Origin: Enterobacteria phage KhF1
Strand: one strand, 5' to 3'
Sequence record: KT184313.1
DNA length: 64,000 bases
Shown: in pieces, positions 5,764 through 12,212 of the stretch
How the letters are laid out: every line of letters starts with the position of its first letter
Position numbering within the stretch: position 1 is the stretch's first letter
The notes under the pieces: generated by a model
The model's input: only the letters and a program-made list of their open reading frames with translations
Databases searched by the model: none
What the model was told of the DNA's origin: nothing
Made by a program: the position numbers and the translations under genes

Positions 5764-8130
5764 TTAATCGTAAATTGTAGTCCCTTCTGGAACACATTTT
5801 ACATCAAAACCTAAGAACTTACTCACTTCGATGGGTGACACTTTATTCCAATCTAAATGAGAAAGCAAGAAGTTTTCTTGTTTTCTTTTTGAAAGATAGT
5901 TTGTCACCTTAATAACCATACGGTCACCAGCTTTCTTAATTTTCTTGTAAAGCTTTGTATCGTTGTCAAGGCAGTCTTTCAAAGTTTTCAATACACTAAT
6001 GGTATAAGTGTATGCAAATGGTGCAGCAACGTATTGGATTTTACCGAACATTGCCTCTACAGCCTCTTCATTTCCTTCTAGGAAGATAGTTTTGTTTGTA
6101 TCCCTTGAATAACAATACCCGCGAGAAATCTTCCTGTTATTAAACGTAAAGTTTCTGGCAATAATCCAACTGCTTGTAAGGTCAAGGACACCATTCATAT
6201 AGATACGCGTCATATATCTGTTATGGTTAATCCAGTGAACATCAGTTAAGCTGTCGTTCAAGAGTTTCTCATCTACTTCAATCCAATCTTCTGGTATCTT
6301 TTTCCAATTTGCTTTTCGGAAAACATAGACTGTCTTACCTGTAACATTAGCAACTGACTTAGCTACATCTTCTGGAGATGAGCAAAAACATTCACCATCA
6401 ACTGTGTCACCGATTGCCTTAATGTAAAGCTGAGGTTCTTCAATTGTGTCTAAGTCCTCTGACACCTCTTTGTAGGAGGCTACACCTTCTGCTGGAACAG
6501 CTTTCCAGAGTTTTACAACACCTCTTACAGCTTCTTTACGTTGGTAATGGTGTTCCTTATCAGACATTTTCACAATCTTTAACAAGCTTTTATCAAGTTT
6601 GTGCAGATTGATTAAGTCATCTAACTCTTTTTCAGTCGAGAATACAAAGACAATACCATTGTATCTGTGAAACAGACTTGACTCACTGGCATAGTCTCGA
6701 CATGCACCACGCAAGATTTGGTTGCGTCCTACAGTCTTCTCAGTACCATTTTTATTGCGACGGTCATTTATAACAAACAAAAACTGTTCAATTTGGCTTT
6801 TACGCATTGCGCCAAAGATATTGAACATACTTGCCTCTTGAGTGTAGGAAAGTGCTGTTGCACGAATCTTACTCTCTAAAGAGTTGAACTTGACATAAGC
6901 AACTGGGTCATAAAGATAATCTACTTTAGGGATGTTGTTTCCGTTCCTATCAACCTTAATATTACCTTTACCGTCACGTTCATAAATGACTGAGCCGTCT
7001 TCTGCGTAGATAATTCCACGACGAATGTTTAGTAATTCTTCTTCCAGAGAATCAAGCTTAACGCCTCCCCACTCTAACTTTGGACACACAGCATTAAACA
7101 TCTCTCGTGAGTTCAAACGTAACTCAGCATAAGCCTGTGCAGCATCCATGAGTGTAGGTTGACTGTTAACTTTCTTGATAACATCCTTTGTAATTGCTTC
7201 AGTTATCTTTTTAGTAGCCTCAATGATAACATTTTTTGTCGTGTCATTCATCTGCAATGCTTCACGAGAAGCTGCAATAGCGACTGAACCAATAGGCATG
7301 TAGATGTTTACAAGGTCTACGCTCCTACGGAAAAATTCTGGCAATACTTTGAAGAAATCATCACCAAGTAATGCTTCCATGTTAACAGGGTAGGCAATGT
7401 TACCCATCACCACATTAAACTCTGTCCTGTTATCACTAGAACGCCAGCTGTGCTTATGAATCATGGCATCATAAACACCTTCTTCACGGGCAATGACGTT
7501 CATATCTGCTAATACATCGTCGTACTCAATATTACTTTCTGGTTTTACAGTGAAGTATGAGTACACATTCCCAGCTTCTTCAAAGAACTTTGAGATACGG
7601 TGGTCAGCAACCGCCACACGTACAGCTAAACCATTAGGTTCTTTTGTTGGGTTAGTTGTCAGCTTAGTTACTTGAGGGATACCATTCTCAAGATAAACAG
7701 AGTACTTATTAACAACACCATCAACATAGCTAGATACTGTGAATGACTGAGCAATTGCAAATGGTGACTTTGAGCCGATACCCATTGCACCAATGTAGTC
7801 ATTAGAGTCATTCTTCGTAGAAGCTCCATAGTTTAGGTACAAACTCATAACTTTATCATGAGTCAATCCAGTTCCAAAATCACGAACTTCGAAGTAAGGC
7901 TCAAAACGAGTAGGTAAATGCACATGGAATGGGATGTTCTCTTTTCCAGCTTCTTTCTGAGCATCTACTGCGTTACATGACAGTTCACGAATCACTGCCC
8001 TTTCTTTAAAGGTATATACACCAGAACTCAAAAGGCTGAACATCTCAGGTGTCATTGTAATCTGTGCTTGAGACGTCTCTAAAGAAGTTGAACTCTTAAT
8101 CACTTCTGCGTGGTCATTTACCATGCGCAT
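5764..8130 (-). CDS. rIIA: rIIA-like protein with N-terminal GHKL/HATPase-type ATPase domain
   Basis: IRELSCNAVDA ... VRDFGTGL ... GAMGIGSKSPFAIA match GHKL ATPase N, G1 and G2 boxes; 788 aa; adjacent to rIIB-like gene. Confidence 0.6.
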   Translation of the reverse strand: MRMVNDHAEVIKSSTSLETSQAQITMTPEMFSLLSSGVYTFKERAVIRELSCNAVDAQKEAGKENIPFHVHLPTRFEPYFEVRDFGTGLTHDKVMSLYLNYGASTKNDSNDYIGAMGIGSKSPFAIAQSFTVSSYVDGVVNKYSVYLENGIPQVTKLTTNPTKEPNGLAVRVAVADHRISKFFEEAGNVYSYFTVKPESNIEYDDVLADMNVIAREEGVYDAMIHKHSWRSSDNRTEFNVVMGNIAYPVNMEALLGDDFFKVLPEFFRRSVDLVNIYMPIGSVAIAASREALQMNDTTKNVIIEATKKITEAITKDVIKKVNSQPTLMDAAQAYAELRLNSREMFNAVCPKLEWGGVKLDSLEEELLNIRRGIIYAEDGSVIYERDGKGNIKVDRNGNNIPKVDYLYDPVAYVKFNSLESKIRATALSYTQEASMFNIFGAMRKSQIEQFLFVINDRRNKNGTEKTVGRNQILRGACRDYASESSLFHRYNGIVFVFSTEKELDDLINLHKLDKSLLKIVKMSDKEHHYQRKEAVRGVVKLWKAVPAEGVASYKEVSEDLDTIEEPQLYIKAIGDTVDGECFCSSPEDVAKSVANVTGKTVYVFRKANWKKIPEDWIEVDEKLLNDSLTDVHWINHNRYMTRIYMNGVLDLTSSWIIARNFTFNNRKISRGYCYSRDTNKTIFLEGNEEAVEAMFGKIQYVAAPFAYTYTISVLKTLKDCLDNDTKLYKKIKKAGDRMVIKVTNYLSKRKQENFLLSHLDWNKVSPIEVSKFLGFDVKCVPEGTTIYD

Positions 8131-8158: not shown

Positions 8159-8335
8159 TTACTTATTAAACATTTTACCAGAACCACCACAAATAGGGCA
8201 ACAACCTGCTCTTGTATACCCTTCTCCGTTACAGTAGTCACACTTTTTGTGTTCTGCAAAGTACTTACAAAGAAGGCAAACAAATATTGCTACACTACCA
8301 AGTGACAGTAAAATTTCTATCCAATATGCTTGCAT
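8159..8335 (-). CDS. Small membrane protein with DnaJ-type CxxCxGxG zinc-finger repeats (58 aa)
   Basis: Manually translated: MQAYWIEILLSLGSVAIFVCLLCKYFAEHKKCDYCNGEGYTRAGCCPICGGSGKMFNK; below ORF-track cutoff. Confidence 0.3.
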   Translation of the reverse strand: MQAYWIEILLSLGSVAIFVCLLCKYFAEHKKCDYCNGEGYTRAGCCPICGGSGKMFNK

Positions 8336-8652
8336 GACTCACCTCTCATGTTTTTGTAAAGGATAAAGCTTCTGTCATGAACGATACTTGTAGATACTGC
8401 AAAGTTACTTTCAAGCATCTGTTTGTTTGGATTGTAGAAGCTTTTTTTAAACTCGTCAAGCGCAAACTGGTGATGTTGTGGAAGACCTTTTACACAAACC
8501 TTTATTGTGATTGCTGCTGCAACCTTTCCAGTCAGTTCTTCTTTAGCTGCTACTAAAATTTTGTTGAGGAACTTATGACCATCTTCAGTCTTCTTGATGT
8601 TCTCCCAACGTTCTTCTAAGACAATGTTGATGTTCATTTCTTTGATTTTCAT
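8317..8652 (-). CDS. Hypothetical protein (111 aa)
   Basis: ORF downstream of NAD-module terminator. Confidence 0.45.
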   Translation of the reverse strand: MKIKEMNINIVLEERWENIKKTEDGHKFLNKILVAAKEELTGKVAAAITIKVCVKGLPQHHQFALDEFKKSFYNPNKQMLESNFAVSTSIVHDRSFILYKNMRGESCKHIG

Positions 8653-8705: not shown

Positions 8706-10487
8706 TTAAAGCTGCTTGTCAATATTATTTCGAATATCACCAAGCGTTGTGTAACCGAACTGCTCAGAGTCGCTAAAGACTAAACGTAAAGCACAAGCTG
8801 GATGTTCAAGTACATCTGCAAAGCTCTGGAATCCATAGCCATCTACAGCTTTCAACTTATCACCATCCCACATAGGTGCTACACCACCAAAAGCAGACTT
8901 CTTAACACCACTATCTGTTTTAGGGTCTTTTGCAAGCATAATCTCTTTACCACCAATGCTTGCAAGAGTTGCTTTAACAGCAAATGCAAAGGTGTCACGA
9001 GTCATGTACTGGTAAGTGTAAGAGCCTACGCCAAACACTACGTTAGAGCTTGCAAAACCCATTTCATACAGACGCTTCAGGATTTCGTTTGCACGTTCCA
9101 GCGTGATAGAGTCGCCATAGATAAGGCCAATGTGCTCATCCAGTACCTTAAAACCTTTAGAGTTAATAGTTCCTCCAAAGATGTTGTACAGTGTCTTAAT
9201 AGCTCCATCAATCTCAGCTACAGGACGTGTTACAACGTTTGCAGAACCAACCATATAAGCGTTTTTCAACAGCACTGTATCAGCAACTTCAAAGTCTTCT
9301 CTGTCAACAACCATTTCGTAGCCTTCTGACAGTAGCCATCCAGCAATACCATAATTGATGTTTTCAAGCTTCATGTTCAGAACAGCATTCAACATTGTGT
9401 CGCTGGCTTCCAGCTTGCTAAGGTGCTCATAATAAGCCTTTTTAGCACACTCTAAGTGGATTGCTTTATAACCTGTGACAATATGTACAGGGTCTCCAGA
9501 GTCAGGACGAATTACCAGTTTACCGTCACGTCCCATAATCTCTTTGCGAAGTGCTGGTAAGATTTCTGACACAGTTCTCCAGAAGTTATAAGTGTCTGAA
9601 ACAATACTTGCAATACCAGTCGGGTAAGTCTCTGTTAAGAAGCGACGGAAGGTTTGCAACTCACCTTTGAAGCGTCTTTCTTCTTCAATCAATTCATTAC
9701 CACCTTCCCAAGCAATGTTTGCACACATTACAGAGTGTTCAGTGGCTGGTACAGAACCACCAATATCAGAGATTGGGTAAGACTGCCCGTAGATGCGTTT
9801 AGCTGTATATACAGCAGGGAAGCTATCAGTTCCTTTAAAGCTGGTTAAGTGGCCTACAGCATTAAATGCGTCATCAGTAAAGCCGGACATACCACGCATA
9901 GCAAAGTCATGGCACTGATAAGGTAAATGTAAGTCATTGTCACAAGTAAGGTCAGCCCACTTCTTACAGATACGTTTGTAGTGCAATGCAATAGTTGCGA
10001 TGGTACAAGCCTTCCAAATCTCAGCAGAGAAAGCATCTTCCAGATACCCTGCTACCCAATGGAAACCTGAAACAGTGTTCTGGAAGACAACCATTGGGAC
10101 ACGCATAGGGACAACTGTACCTTCTTCTACAGCGTATACTTCAACTGGCAGATAACCCAAGTCGTGAAGTGCTTCCCAATGCTCTCGACCGATAGCATCT
10201 TTACCCAGAACACCATTCATGACTTCTAAGATTTCGTCAATTGCTTCTTTTTTATCACGTTCAAAGAAGGTGGCATTCCAATGGTCTATCAAGTAATCTT
10301 TAACAAAACGTTGAATACCAAAAGCCACTACACCGTCAATTGCCAAAGGGCTGTTAAACCATTTGTCGCTACGTGGTGTCAGGTTGAACATCAAATATTC
10401 TGTTGCACTAGGGTACTGGTAAACATGACCAGATTTGTAAGCATCTGCGTTTAAACCTGCTGGTACTGCATAAAGTGATTTAGTCAT
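8706..10487 (-). CDS. Nicotinamide phosphoribosyltransferase family enzyme (NadV/NAMPT-like; possibly Namat-type)
   Basis: Matches NAMPT blocks: DAYKSGH, HDFAMRGMSG, FKGTDS, PATEHS, VSDTYN, IRPDSGDP, NSKGFKVL...YGDS, VFGVGS; 593 aa with about 80-aa insertion. Confidence 0.85.
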   Translation of the reverse strand: MTKSLYAVPAGLNADAYKSGHVYQYPSATEYLMFNLTPRSDKWFNSPLAIDGVVAFGIQRFVKDYLIDHWNATFFERDKKEAIDEILEVMNGVLGKDAIGREHWEALHDLGYLPVEVYAVEEGTVVPMRVPMVVFQNTVSGFHWVAGYLEDAFSAEIWKACTIATIALHYKRICKKWADLTCDNDLHLPYQCHDFAMRGMSGFTDDAFNAVGHLTSFKGTDSFPAVYTAKRIYGQSYPISDIGGSVPATEHSVMCANIAWEGGNELIEEERRFKGELQTFRRFLTETYPTGIASIVSDTYNFWRTVSEILPALRKEIMGRDGKLVIRPDSGDPVHIVTGYKAIHLECAKKAYYEHLSKLEASDTMLNAVLNMKLENINYGIAGWLLSEGYEMVVDREDFEVADTVLLKNAYMVGSANVVTRPVAEIDGAIKTLYNIFGGTINSKGFKVLDEHIGLIYGDSITLERANEILKRLYEMGFASSNVVFGVGSYTYQYMTRDTFAFAVKATLASIGGKEIMLAKDPKTDSGVKKSAFGGVAPMWDGDKLKAVDGYGFQSFADVLEHPACALRLVFSDSEQFGYTTLGDIRNNIDKQL

Positions 10488-10532: not shown

Positions 10533-11429
10533 TCAATCAAGGTTTGCTACAGTAACTTGACTATAATGTGTTAAGCCACGGTCTTTAGCTTCGCCTAAAG
10601 AGTTTGTAGTGTAAATATGGTCGATACCGTTGTCAAGAAGGTTTTCAACACCTTTAGAGAAGATACCATGTGTTACATAAAGCTCAACACGTTTTGCACC
10701 TGCTTCACGTAGGTGTTTAGCTGCCTCTACGAAGGTTCGACCACCATCACAGATATCATCAAGAATCATGACGGTTTTATCGGTCAAATCAACATCGTCA
10801 AGGATTCGCATACCAGTGATTTCTCCAGTCTTAAGATTTCGCACCTTAGACATTGTGATATATGGTTTATCCACCTCTTTAGCAGTCTCTGCAATCTTCT
10901 TAGAAGCACCTGCATCTGGGGCTACTAAGTAATCAATTAGAGGGTCATTTGCATAGTGGACTGCAATCTCCTTTTGAGGAATACTCTGGAAGCAGTTAAA
11001 CAGGTTATCTGGTACATAGCTGTGAGGGTCAACTGCACAGACTGCGCCAAACCCCATTGCATTAATCTGTTTAGCAAAAACCTTTAAAGCTGCTGCGTCG
11101 CCTTTAAACATGTGACGGTCATAACGTGCATTTGGTAAGTAGTAAAAGATGACAGTCTTTAAAGCATAATCATGAGGAATTAAATCATCAATTGCTTCTT
11201 TAGCAAGTGCCACAGCAAACAATGTATCCTTATCATAACCTTTTACAATCATAATCACATTGTTGATGGATGATGCTGCATAAGCAGTGAAATCAACAAA
11301 CTCTGGCGAAAAGTGTCCACCAATCTCACCAGAAGGAAATTGGATGATGTTAAACTCTTCTTCATGAGTTCCTTTAGTTGGTGAATGAACTGTAACACGG
11401 ATAGATGTTTTCATAGTTTTCTCTCTCAA
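10533..11429 (-). CDS. Ribose-phosphate pyrophosphokinase family enzyme (Prs-like; possibly Adps-type ADP-ribose pyrophosphokinase)
   Basis: PRPP-binding loop VMILDDICDGGRTF; NARYDR ribose-phosphate loop; C-terminal KRVELYVTHGIFS; 298 aa. Confidence 0.8.
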   Translation of the reverse strand: MREKTMKTSIRVTVHSPTKGTHEEEFNIIQFPSGEIGGHFSPEFVDFTAYAASSINNVIMIVKGYDKDTLFAVALAKEAIDDLIPHDYALKTVIFYYLPNARYDRHMFKGDAAALKVFAKQINAMGFGAVCAVDPHSYVPDNLFNCFQSIPQKEIAVHYANDPLIDYLVAPDAGASKKIAETAKEVDKPYITMSKVRNLKTGEITGMRILDDVDLTDKTVMILDDICDGGRTFVEAAKHLREAGAKRVELYVTHGIFSKGVENLLDNGIDHIYTTNSLGEAKDRGLTHYSQVTVANLD

Positions 11430-11704
11430 TCAAAAGTTACGTTTGTTACTGCCATTGCAGATTTGCATTTTTCAGGGTCTACAACGTGATAAAGTACACT
11501 ACAGTTACCTGTGCTGTCTGGTACAGGTTTAACCCATTGTTGCTTGACAGTTGGTTCGCCTAAGTCTTTGTAAGAACCATCTGTAAAGTTGTTTACCATC
11601 TCAAGTGCAATTGGCTCTGGAACATGACCACGTATCATGTACATTTCACAACCATTACCTCCTTCACTGACTAATGGTAAAATCTCCCACTTTTCTTTAG
11701 CCAT
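11426..11704 (-). CDS. Hypothetical protein (92 aa)
   Basis: ORF with 4-nt overlap to Prs-like gene. Confidence 0.4.
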   Translation of the reverse strand: MAKEKWEILPLVSEGGNGCEMYMIRGHVPEPIALEMVNNFTDGSYKDLGEPTVKQQWVKPVPDSTGNCSVLYHVVDPEKCKSAMAVTNVTFD

Positions 11705-12212
11705 TATAAGTTGCCCTATAAACTGTCTCGAACTTCAACAGGAGAGATATTGCCAAATCTGTATAGTTGTTGTCAAGCACATCTGGCATATTATTTTTGA
11801 TATATTTCTCTTGCTCTTCATAGGTCATCTTGGGGATACTTAGGAGGCTATCTCCTTGCTTCTGGTTATCAGTTTTAGTTTGGATAAACCAGTTTGCACA
11901 GTGATGTTCACCACCTTTTGTAACAGGTTTGTGATGACCTAATGTAAATGTTTGCTTACCCGTATACCTGCAAAGATTGTTCAGTGTTGCAATGGTGTTC
12001 TTCACAACACACCATTCATACAGGTTATCTATGGTGTAGTGTGGGTAATAACGGACAAGTGCTCTTTCACGGAAGTTATCACGATTCCAAAGAACCATGT
12101 GATTAGAATTTGAAGGGTCATATTTGTGGGAGTCTATAAACTCTTGACGCTCATCAAAGCTGAGTCTTAGAACTGACATTGCAGCAGAACGTTTTAGGTT
12201 TGACAGATACAT
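11697..12212 (-). CDS. Hypothetical protein; weak HNH-like His/Cys cluster
   Basis: LGHHKPVTKGGEHHCANW cluster; not a clean HNH motif. Confidence 0.35.
   Translation of the reverse strand: MYLSNLKRSAAMSVLRLSFDERQEFIDSHKYDPSNSNHMVLWNRDNFRERALVRYYPHYTIDNLYEWCVVKNTIATLNNLCRYTGKQTFTLGHHKPVTKGGEHHCANWFIQTKTDNQKQGDSLLSIPKMTYEEQEKYIKNNMPDVLDNNYTDLAISLLLKFETVYRATYNG

Follow-up and report, generated by a model that had tools for sequence, protein, structure and literature searches.

A lineage-specific insertion predicted to fold as a separate α/β domain in the Namat of Enterobacteria phage KhF1

Enterobacteria phage KhF1 encodes a NAMPT-like enzyme in which the segment following a catalytic strand is far longer than in NAMPT itself, and the question is what this extra segment is and whether it has any part in choosing the substrate. 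The DNA analysed (the window) was a stretch of 64,000 nucleotides from sequence record KT184313.1. The gene is a 593-amino acid (aa) open reading frame (ORF) at 8706..10487 on the minus strand, coding for the nicotinamide ADPR-transferase Namat (ADPR, ADP-ribose). An earlier reading of the sequence alone, made without database searches, had noticed the insertion, and had suggested that it might be a specificity determinant, for example for ADPR-pyrophosphate (ADPR-PP) instead of phosphoribosyl pyrophosphate (PRPP), or a phage-specific interaction surface. Namat and the pathway to which it belongs, NARP1, are already known; what is new is an uncharacterised and apparently self-folding domain, without detectable relatives, that is conserved across a phage family.

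In the KhF1 protein the catalytic-strand motif IRPDSGDP occupies residues 326-333 (9489..9512, minus strand) and the block TINSKGFKVL residues 440-449, with 106 residues between them. In the alignment with human NAMPT, for which the sequence used was identical to PDB 2gvg_A, only 18 aa separate IRPDSGNP (310-317) from ENSKGYKLL (from 336), and in the Namat of SpβL1 the corresponding interval is 29 residues long. The sequence-only reading had put the two blocks near residues 328 and 440, in agreement with these positions, and the extra segment at 9215-9470, which corresponds to residues 340-425; its estimate of about 95 aa versus about 17 in NAMPT captured the large excess, although both figures were slightly off. 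The chain of the SpβL1 enzyme aligned as two blocks (query residues 5-343 with chain residues 8-327, and 427-585 with 334-490), with approximately 83 query residues facing 6 in the crystal structure, a net insertion of approximately 77 aa. Enterobacterial homologues of 495-497 aa had 43 residues in the interval for which the window's Namat has 115. The large insertion was thus seen with human NAMPT, with SpβL1 Namat and with the enterobacterial homologues, and a segment of the same length, sought by alignment in ordinary NadV enzymes, was not found. We refer to it as insert 2 (residues 340-424; 9216..9470, minus strand). It lies between the IRPD strand with the short helix 333-338 and a canonical helix (423-437), and its junctions read TGY/KAIH... 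and ...PVAE/IDG. Since the family profile PF04095 (NAPRTase/NAMPT, E = 3.7e-34) aligned to two distinct parts of the protein, and comparison of the modelled core with PDB 9w5x by Foldseek gave a TM-score of 0.95 when normalised to the target and 0.78 when normalised to the query, insert 2 is real and not an alignment artefact.

The full-length protein was modelled with AlphaFold2 on a 53-sequence alignment. The model had a pLDDT (predicted local distance difference test score) of 94.2 and a pTM (predicted template modelling score) of 0.92, and insert 2 scored as high as the core (94-97). The insert was predicted to be an α/β domain of the order β-α-α-α-β-β-α-β: strand 342-344, helices 345-358, 363-370 and 379-387, strands 392-395 and 401-406, helix 407-413 and strand 419-422. 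Residues 338-426 modelled alone from 24 aligned insert sequences gave a pLDDT of 94.7 and a pTM of 0.83. Because the isolated and the full-length models contain identical secondary-structure elements, insert 2 is predicted to be an autonomous α/β domain rather than a disordered loop, and the NAMPT-like core is left unperturbed by it in the model. The same model places the start of the insert 11 residues after D329, past helix 333-338, at what would be the catalytic-face end of the strand carrying R327 and D329. The neighbouring strand ends in YGDS, and in SpβL1 Namat the equivalent of this motif (D361/A362) is in contact with the AMP phosphate of NAD+ (Lan et al., NAR 2026, PMC12774641). The modelled domain could be near the pocket entrance; it is equally possible that it sits on the outer rim and points away.

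Insert 2 was absent from every solved structure matched by Foldseek. No similarity beyond the Namat family itself was found for it in Pfam (best E = 0.033, under the cut-off), among PHROG families or among PDB sequences (best E = 0.51), and a Foldseek search of BFVD returned nothing at E ≤ 0.001. A profile hidden Markov model of the insert, run against 1.84 billion representative proteins, retrieved two Namats and, as the top match, one repeat protein of 1880 aa (P0121). This protein contains about 15 near-identical repeats, each matching weakly to profile positions 28-64 only, with the scores summed, and it was judged a spurious match. The insert was acidic in 24/24 sequences (isoelectric point 4.05-5.45), but whole Namat and its partner enzyme Adps are acidic too, so this property is not distinctive.

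To ask what such a domain could do requires the identity of the enzyme. In the NARP1 pathway the Prs-like ADPR-pyrophosphate synthetase Adps uses ATP and ADPR to form ADPR-PP, and the NAMPT-like Namat couples ADPR-PP with nicotinamide to yield NAD+ (Osterman et al., bioRxiv 10.1101/2024.02.11.579819). The pathway was described for genes 79-80 of phage Bas63 (Escherichia phage JohannRWettstein), an operon that overcomes the NAD+-depleting defence SIR2-HerA: Bas63 lacking it becomes sensitive to SIR2-HerA, and the in vivo evidence comprises detection of ADPR-PP and the countering of the defence (10.1101/2024.02.11.579819). The window's Namat is 98% identical to that of Bas63 (P0007) over all 593 residues, insert included; there is essentially no difference between them, and they are the same protein in sister members of Felixounavirus. 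The 4.5 kb around the gene were 93-97% identical to Felixounavirus genomes (e.g. KhF3, Felix O1 and wV8), and the window is from a Felixounavirus. An Adps gene coding for 298 aa (10533..11429, minus strand; PF00156, PF14572, phrog_619) lies 45 nucleotides upstream of Namat, in its immediate vicinity, and the pair equals the Bas63 operon, with Adps upstream in both.

The protein itself has the expected features. Its N-terminal part matched PF18127, the NAMPT N-terminal domain, and against PDB sequences SpβL1 Namat (9w5w) was matched by phmmer at 1.8e-127. The catalytic His251 (9735..9737, minus strand) is in an ATEHS motif in which E250 and H251 are invariant in the alignment, as are R327, P328, D329, S330 and G331 of the RPD strand. 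R327 and D329 correspond to R306 and D308 of SpβL1 Namat and to R311 and D313 of human NAMPT. A catalytic histidine common to Namat and Nampt, and contacts of RPD-strand residues with the ribose, have been described (PMC12774641), and the window's protein has the NAMPT-like fold together with the catalytic His and the RPD-strand Arg and Asp. It departs from the canonical PRPP-dependent NAMPT/NadV enzymes (NARP2 type) in having an aromatic helix motif of the Namat type (SCH, below) and an adjacent Adps gene. With all the defining features that a sequence can reveal in place, the window's protein is, on sequence grounds, the already-described Namat, second enzyme of NARP1. Because of its near identity to the Bas63 enzyme, the use of ADPR-PP is likely, and the guess of the sequence-only reading that this is the substrate is supported to that extent.

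The further suggestion, that insert 2 determines the choice between ADPR-PP and PRPP, is contradicted. By mutagenesis, ADPR-PP specificity was mapped to a "selectivity clamp" of SpβL1 Namat, of which one half (SCL) is the β1-β2 loop with R40' and the other (SCH) helix α18, whose consensus is GSXΦXΦXΦTRD and whose aromatic residues stack on the adenine (PMC12774641). Double clamp mutants lost the synthesis of NAD+ driven by ADPR-PP and kept PRPP-dependent synthesis of nicotinamide mononucleotide (NMN) (PMC12774641). Both halves are recognisable in KhF1. The sequence GSYTYQYMTRD (residues 488-498; 8994..9026, minus strand) fits the SCH consensus; its Φ3 is Met, a position described as mainly Asn or Val (PMC12774641). 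In SCL the third position is Arg, Lys or Tyr, with the stacking residue there or next to it, and Bas63 has Lys then Trp (PMC12774641); the window's SDKWF (residues 40-44; 10356..10370, minus strand), within RSDKWF (39-44), likewise has K42 followed by W43 as the putative stacking residue. The clamp motifs were intact in homologues both with and without insert 2. Since the clamp is the same in the two groups, and SpβL1 Namat, which has no insert, already prefers ADPR-PP, insert 2 cannot be the switch from PRPP to ADPR-PP.

Human NAMPT (2gvg) and Haemophilus ducreyi NadV (9ke8) share with the window's Namat the type II phosphoribosyltransferase fold and the catalytic His, Arg and Asp; unlike it, they convert PRPP to NMN and have neither the aromatic SCH clamp nor insert 2. 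SpβL1 Namat has the NAMPT-like two-domain fold, the catalytic residues, the SCH motif, the SCL stacking residue and an Adps partner, but is only 491 aa long, is 37-38% identical in the structural alignment, and carries neither insert 2 nor a smaller insert (insert 1) described below. The closest insert-less relatives were chromosomal Namat-like proteins of enterobacteria (Klebsiella, Cronobacter, Kosakonia and Erwinia; 495-497 aa, 46-49% identity), which have an SCH motif like that of the window's Namat but no inserts.

The distribution of insert 2 follows a phage lineage. A tblastn search with the insert matched 253 phage records, from Felix O1-type phages of E. coli, Salmonella, Shigella and Citrobacter, and among the matches listed all annotated ones were inside a nadV/Namat gene. 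In a metagenome-scale protein search an insertion at this site was seen in all homologues 582-610 aa long, with identities as low as 46%; among them are proteins from Salmonella phage SB18 and from phages infecting Yersinia and Pectobacterium (Arnovirus). The family Andersonviridae includes both Felixounavirus and Arnovirus. In the distant insert-bearing relatives Adps was located 0-2 genes upstream of Namat. Among six Felixounavirus genes the ratio of nonsynonymous to synonymous substitution rates (dN/dS) was 0.070 for insert 2, 0.078 for insert 1, 0.049-0.054 for the adjacent core and 0.006 for the clamp-holding block 425-540. Insert 2 is thus clearly constrained by purifying selection. Across the clade its mean pairwise identity was 30%, versus 60-67% for the core. 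G339, Y340, G389, one Leu and one Glu, together with hydrophobic positions, were invariant or nearly so. As the insert diverges faster than the core and its conserved positions are mostly glycine, hinge or hydrophobic residues, such a pattern is more readily expected of a folded domain at the periphery than of a catalytic element.

A second lineage-specific insertion, not listed in the sequence-only reading, was found after the catalytic histidine. Insert 1 (residues ~256-276; 9660..9722, minus strand) was seen in the alignments and in the model, where it extends the helical hairpin following His251 (helices 251-262 and 268-287). Its length ranges from 14 to 28 aa across the clade: Felixounavirus has the 14-aa form, and in Mooglevirus and Suspvirus-type proteins it reaches as much as 28 aa. 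It was present in 30/30 homologues with insert 2 of the Andersonviridae type and absent from homologues of 488-502 aa. In the 53-sequence sample every insert 1 was accompanied by an insertion in the larger loop, and such an insertion also occurred alone. This co-occurrence suggests that the two inserts pack together.

From these results we favour, with confidence a little above even, the reading that insert 2 is a lineage-specific accessory domain of Namat that takes no part in the chemistry or in substrate choice and is kept because it is structurally integrated. An α/β domain of approximately 85 aa would have grown, in the Felix O1-like phages and their relatives that make up the Andersonviridae, within the loop after the IRPD catalytic strand. 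This loop accepts insertions in many phage Namats, and the domain always comes with the smaller insert after the catalytic-His strand. Most likely insert 2 sits at the rim of domain B as a peripheral lobe with a structural or interaction role, where it may contribute stability or solubility, additional contacts within or between subunits, or a docking surface. Three points weigh against this reading. The insert begins just 11 residues after D329 and beside the YGDS strand, a site that may be at the pocket entrance; strong purifying selection would be equally expected of a directly functional element; and the published biochemistry and structures were all obtained with Namats that lack the insert, those of SpβL1 or Paenibacillus. 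SpβL1 Namat (PDB 9w5w and 9w5x) was crystallised with NAD+ (PMC12774641), and ADPR-PP-dependent NAD+ synthesis in vitro has been shown only for it and for the Paenibacillus homologue, which is 71.9% identical to it. Insert 2 goes unmentioned in the main text and one supplementary file of PMC12774641, in the text of Osterman et al. (10.1101/2024.02.11.579819) and in the Adps structure paper; Figure 4A of Lan et al. must nevertheless display it, since that figure aligns Bas63 Namat with SpβL1.

A bolder proposal, unlikely in our estimate, is that inserts 1 and 2 together form a functional module through which the Andersonviridae Namat would have a further activity that the SpβL1 enzyme lacks, either docking of Adps with channelling of ADPR-PP, or binding of a further ligand or of a host defence factor. 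The related and similarly unlikely idea, to which we give slightly less credit, concerns insert 2 alone: it would be a docking surface for a partner, namely the Adps hexamer handing over its labile product, or a host or defence protein. Channelling would be useful, as ADPR-PP breaks down to a cyclic phosphate inside infected cells (10.1101/2024.02.11.579819), and the finding that SpβL1 Namat, which has no insert, forms no stable complex with Adps (PMC12774641) leaves room for a solution particular to this lineage. An autonomous domain with a variable surface, as predicted here, is also what co-evolving interfaces often look like. The partner, however, offers little that matches. When Adps proteins of insert-bearing and insert-less systems were aligned, the Andersonviridae proteins showed only a short variable N-terminal extension, which could be counted in favour of docking, and no insertion that tracks insert 2; no insertion or conserved element co-occurring with insert 2 was found in that alignment beyond ordinary clade differences. 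The phage-specific interaction surface suggested in the sequence-only reading is neither borne out nor contradicted by this comparison. Conserved polar residues are few in insert 2 itself. A search of the Namat core for a docking surface, by residues conserved in the insert-bearing proteins but different in the insert-less ones, returned about 65 positions scattered along the entire chain, which is ordinary phylogenetic signal.

That insert 2 acts as an active-site lid or as a determinant of specificity or regulation is distinctly improbable. As such it would close over the pyrophosphate/His251 side or the pocket entrance and would modulate the choice of substrate, the coupling to ATP or the release of product. 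Both inserts are predicted to emerge on the barrel's catalytic face from β-to-α loops, one after the His251 strand and the other after the R327/D329 strand, both are under strong purifying selection, and Lan et al. stated that determinants beyond the clamp must exist (PMC12774641). Against this, the SpβL1 and Paenibacillus enzymes show full ADPR-PP-dependent activity without the insert, and the clamp is identical whether insert 2 is there or not. A lid would also be hard to reconcile with the low conservation of the insert, with the unrelated sequences that fill the same loop in other phages, and with a domain that in the models folds independently of the core.

The remaining explanation, that insert 2 is neutral baggage in the form of a degenerate intein, a homing endonuclease remnant or a captured phage gene, is largely refuted and very improbable: a true intein-like insertion in one homologue and recurrent HNH homing endonuclease genes between Adps and Namat in relatives (both described below) speak for it, but the insert has neither intein junction residues (N-terminal Cys/Ser/Thr, C-terminal His-Asn plus Cys/Ser/Thr) nor Hint or endonuclease motifs, has no Pfam, PHROG or PDB similarity outside Namat and no paralogue among the six-frame ORFs of the window, resembles the rest of the gene in GC content and in GC at third codon positions (GC3), was found in the profile search of representative proteins only in Namats apart from the spurious repeat protein, and by its low dN/dS (0.07) and its retention down to 46% whole-protein identity does not behave as a neutral sequence.

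The accessory-domain reading draws on the behaviour of the loop in other phages. The same loop (after PDSGxP..I.CG) holds other insertions of 18-75 aa in the homologues P0097, P0099, P0101, P0102, P0103, P0105 and P0115, the longest (~75 aa) being those of P0099 and P0105. Because the profile of the Andersonviridae insert detected none of these seven insertions, they look like independent events. P0105 (L007 6001-7752) is encoded on a phage-like contig with a Prs/Adps-like gene immediately upstream. P0101 (L008 6001-7764) is also on a phage-like contig, with three Prs-like genes, a Macro-domain gene and a thymidine kinase nearby. The intein-like insertion mentioned above is found outside the window, in the 843-aa homologue P0064, where ~300 aa interrupt the catalytic strand between RPD and SG, a few residues upstream of the insert 2 site; the junctions are RPD-C on the N-terminal and ...VVISGN-SG on the C-terminal side, with a block of endonuclease-like size between them.

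NARP1 is a recently discovered phage counter-defence whose genetics were done in the insert-bearing Bas63 and whose in vitro work was done on the insert-less SpβL1 enzyme. If insert 2 alters the kinetics of the enzyme, its oligomeric state or its binding of partners, the mechanism as published is not complete for the very phage family that yielded the pathway, and if the two inserts do form a module with a second activity, phage Bas63 as the model in vivo and the SpβL1 enzyme as the model in vitro would not work in the same way. If insert 2 is mere structural decoration, it is a clear case of a permissive type II phosphoribosyltransferase loop that has repeatedly accepted whole domains, and knowledge of such a loop would be useful in engineering NAMPT or Namat, e.g. 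to produce NMN or NAD+. In both cases the result refines a known gene function and does not define a new system.

Several observations concern the operon rather than the insert. HNH homing endonuclease genes were found between Adps and Namat in Felix O1 (ORF305, L001 992-1483, annotated as T7 gp3.8-like), in Salmonella phage SB18 and in Pectobacterium phage Arno162 (L011 2493-2990 and L013 2497-2991, respectively), at the place where the window has a bare spacer of 45 nucleotides. The gap between the two genes appears to be a recurrent homing site within the NARP1 operon. One profile of 547 positions, phrog_12872, matched both proteins of the window, with positions 49-224 matching Adps (10536-11429) and positions 235-534 matching Namat (8709-10487). 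Since a single profile covers the two, fused Adps-Namat proteins are implied to exist in some phages. On the Klebsiella michiganensis chromosome (L009 2211-5491) an Adps-like gene lies directly upstream of an insert-less Namat, and the pair adjoins a divergent gene with Nudix and WHD_NrtR domains, an NrtR-type NAD regulator. The proximity of this regulator gene suggests housekeeping regulation of the bacterial NARP1-like operon in Klebsiella.

In the window the NARP1 pair is flanked by two small conserved ORFs on the minus strand, one of 111 aa (8317-8652, phrog_4262) and one of 92 aa (11426-11704, phrog_4726). The latter overlaps the start of Adps by 4 nucleotides and is therefore probably co-transcribed with it. 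Downstream of Namat is rIIA (5764-8130). Two genes upstream of Adps is an ORF of 171 aa (11697-12212, minus strand), which belongs to phrog_3500, had no Pfam match and matched phrog_2214 (HNH endonuclease) weakly (E = 2e-6). GC skew over the window changed sign twice, from negative to positive at 30 kb and back to negative at ~42 kb, which fits blocks of oppositely transcribed genes.

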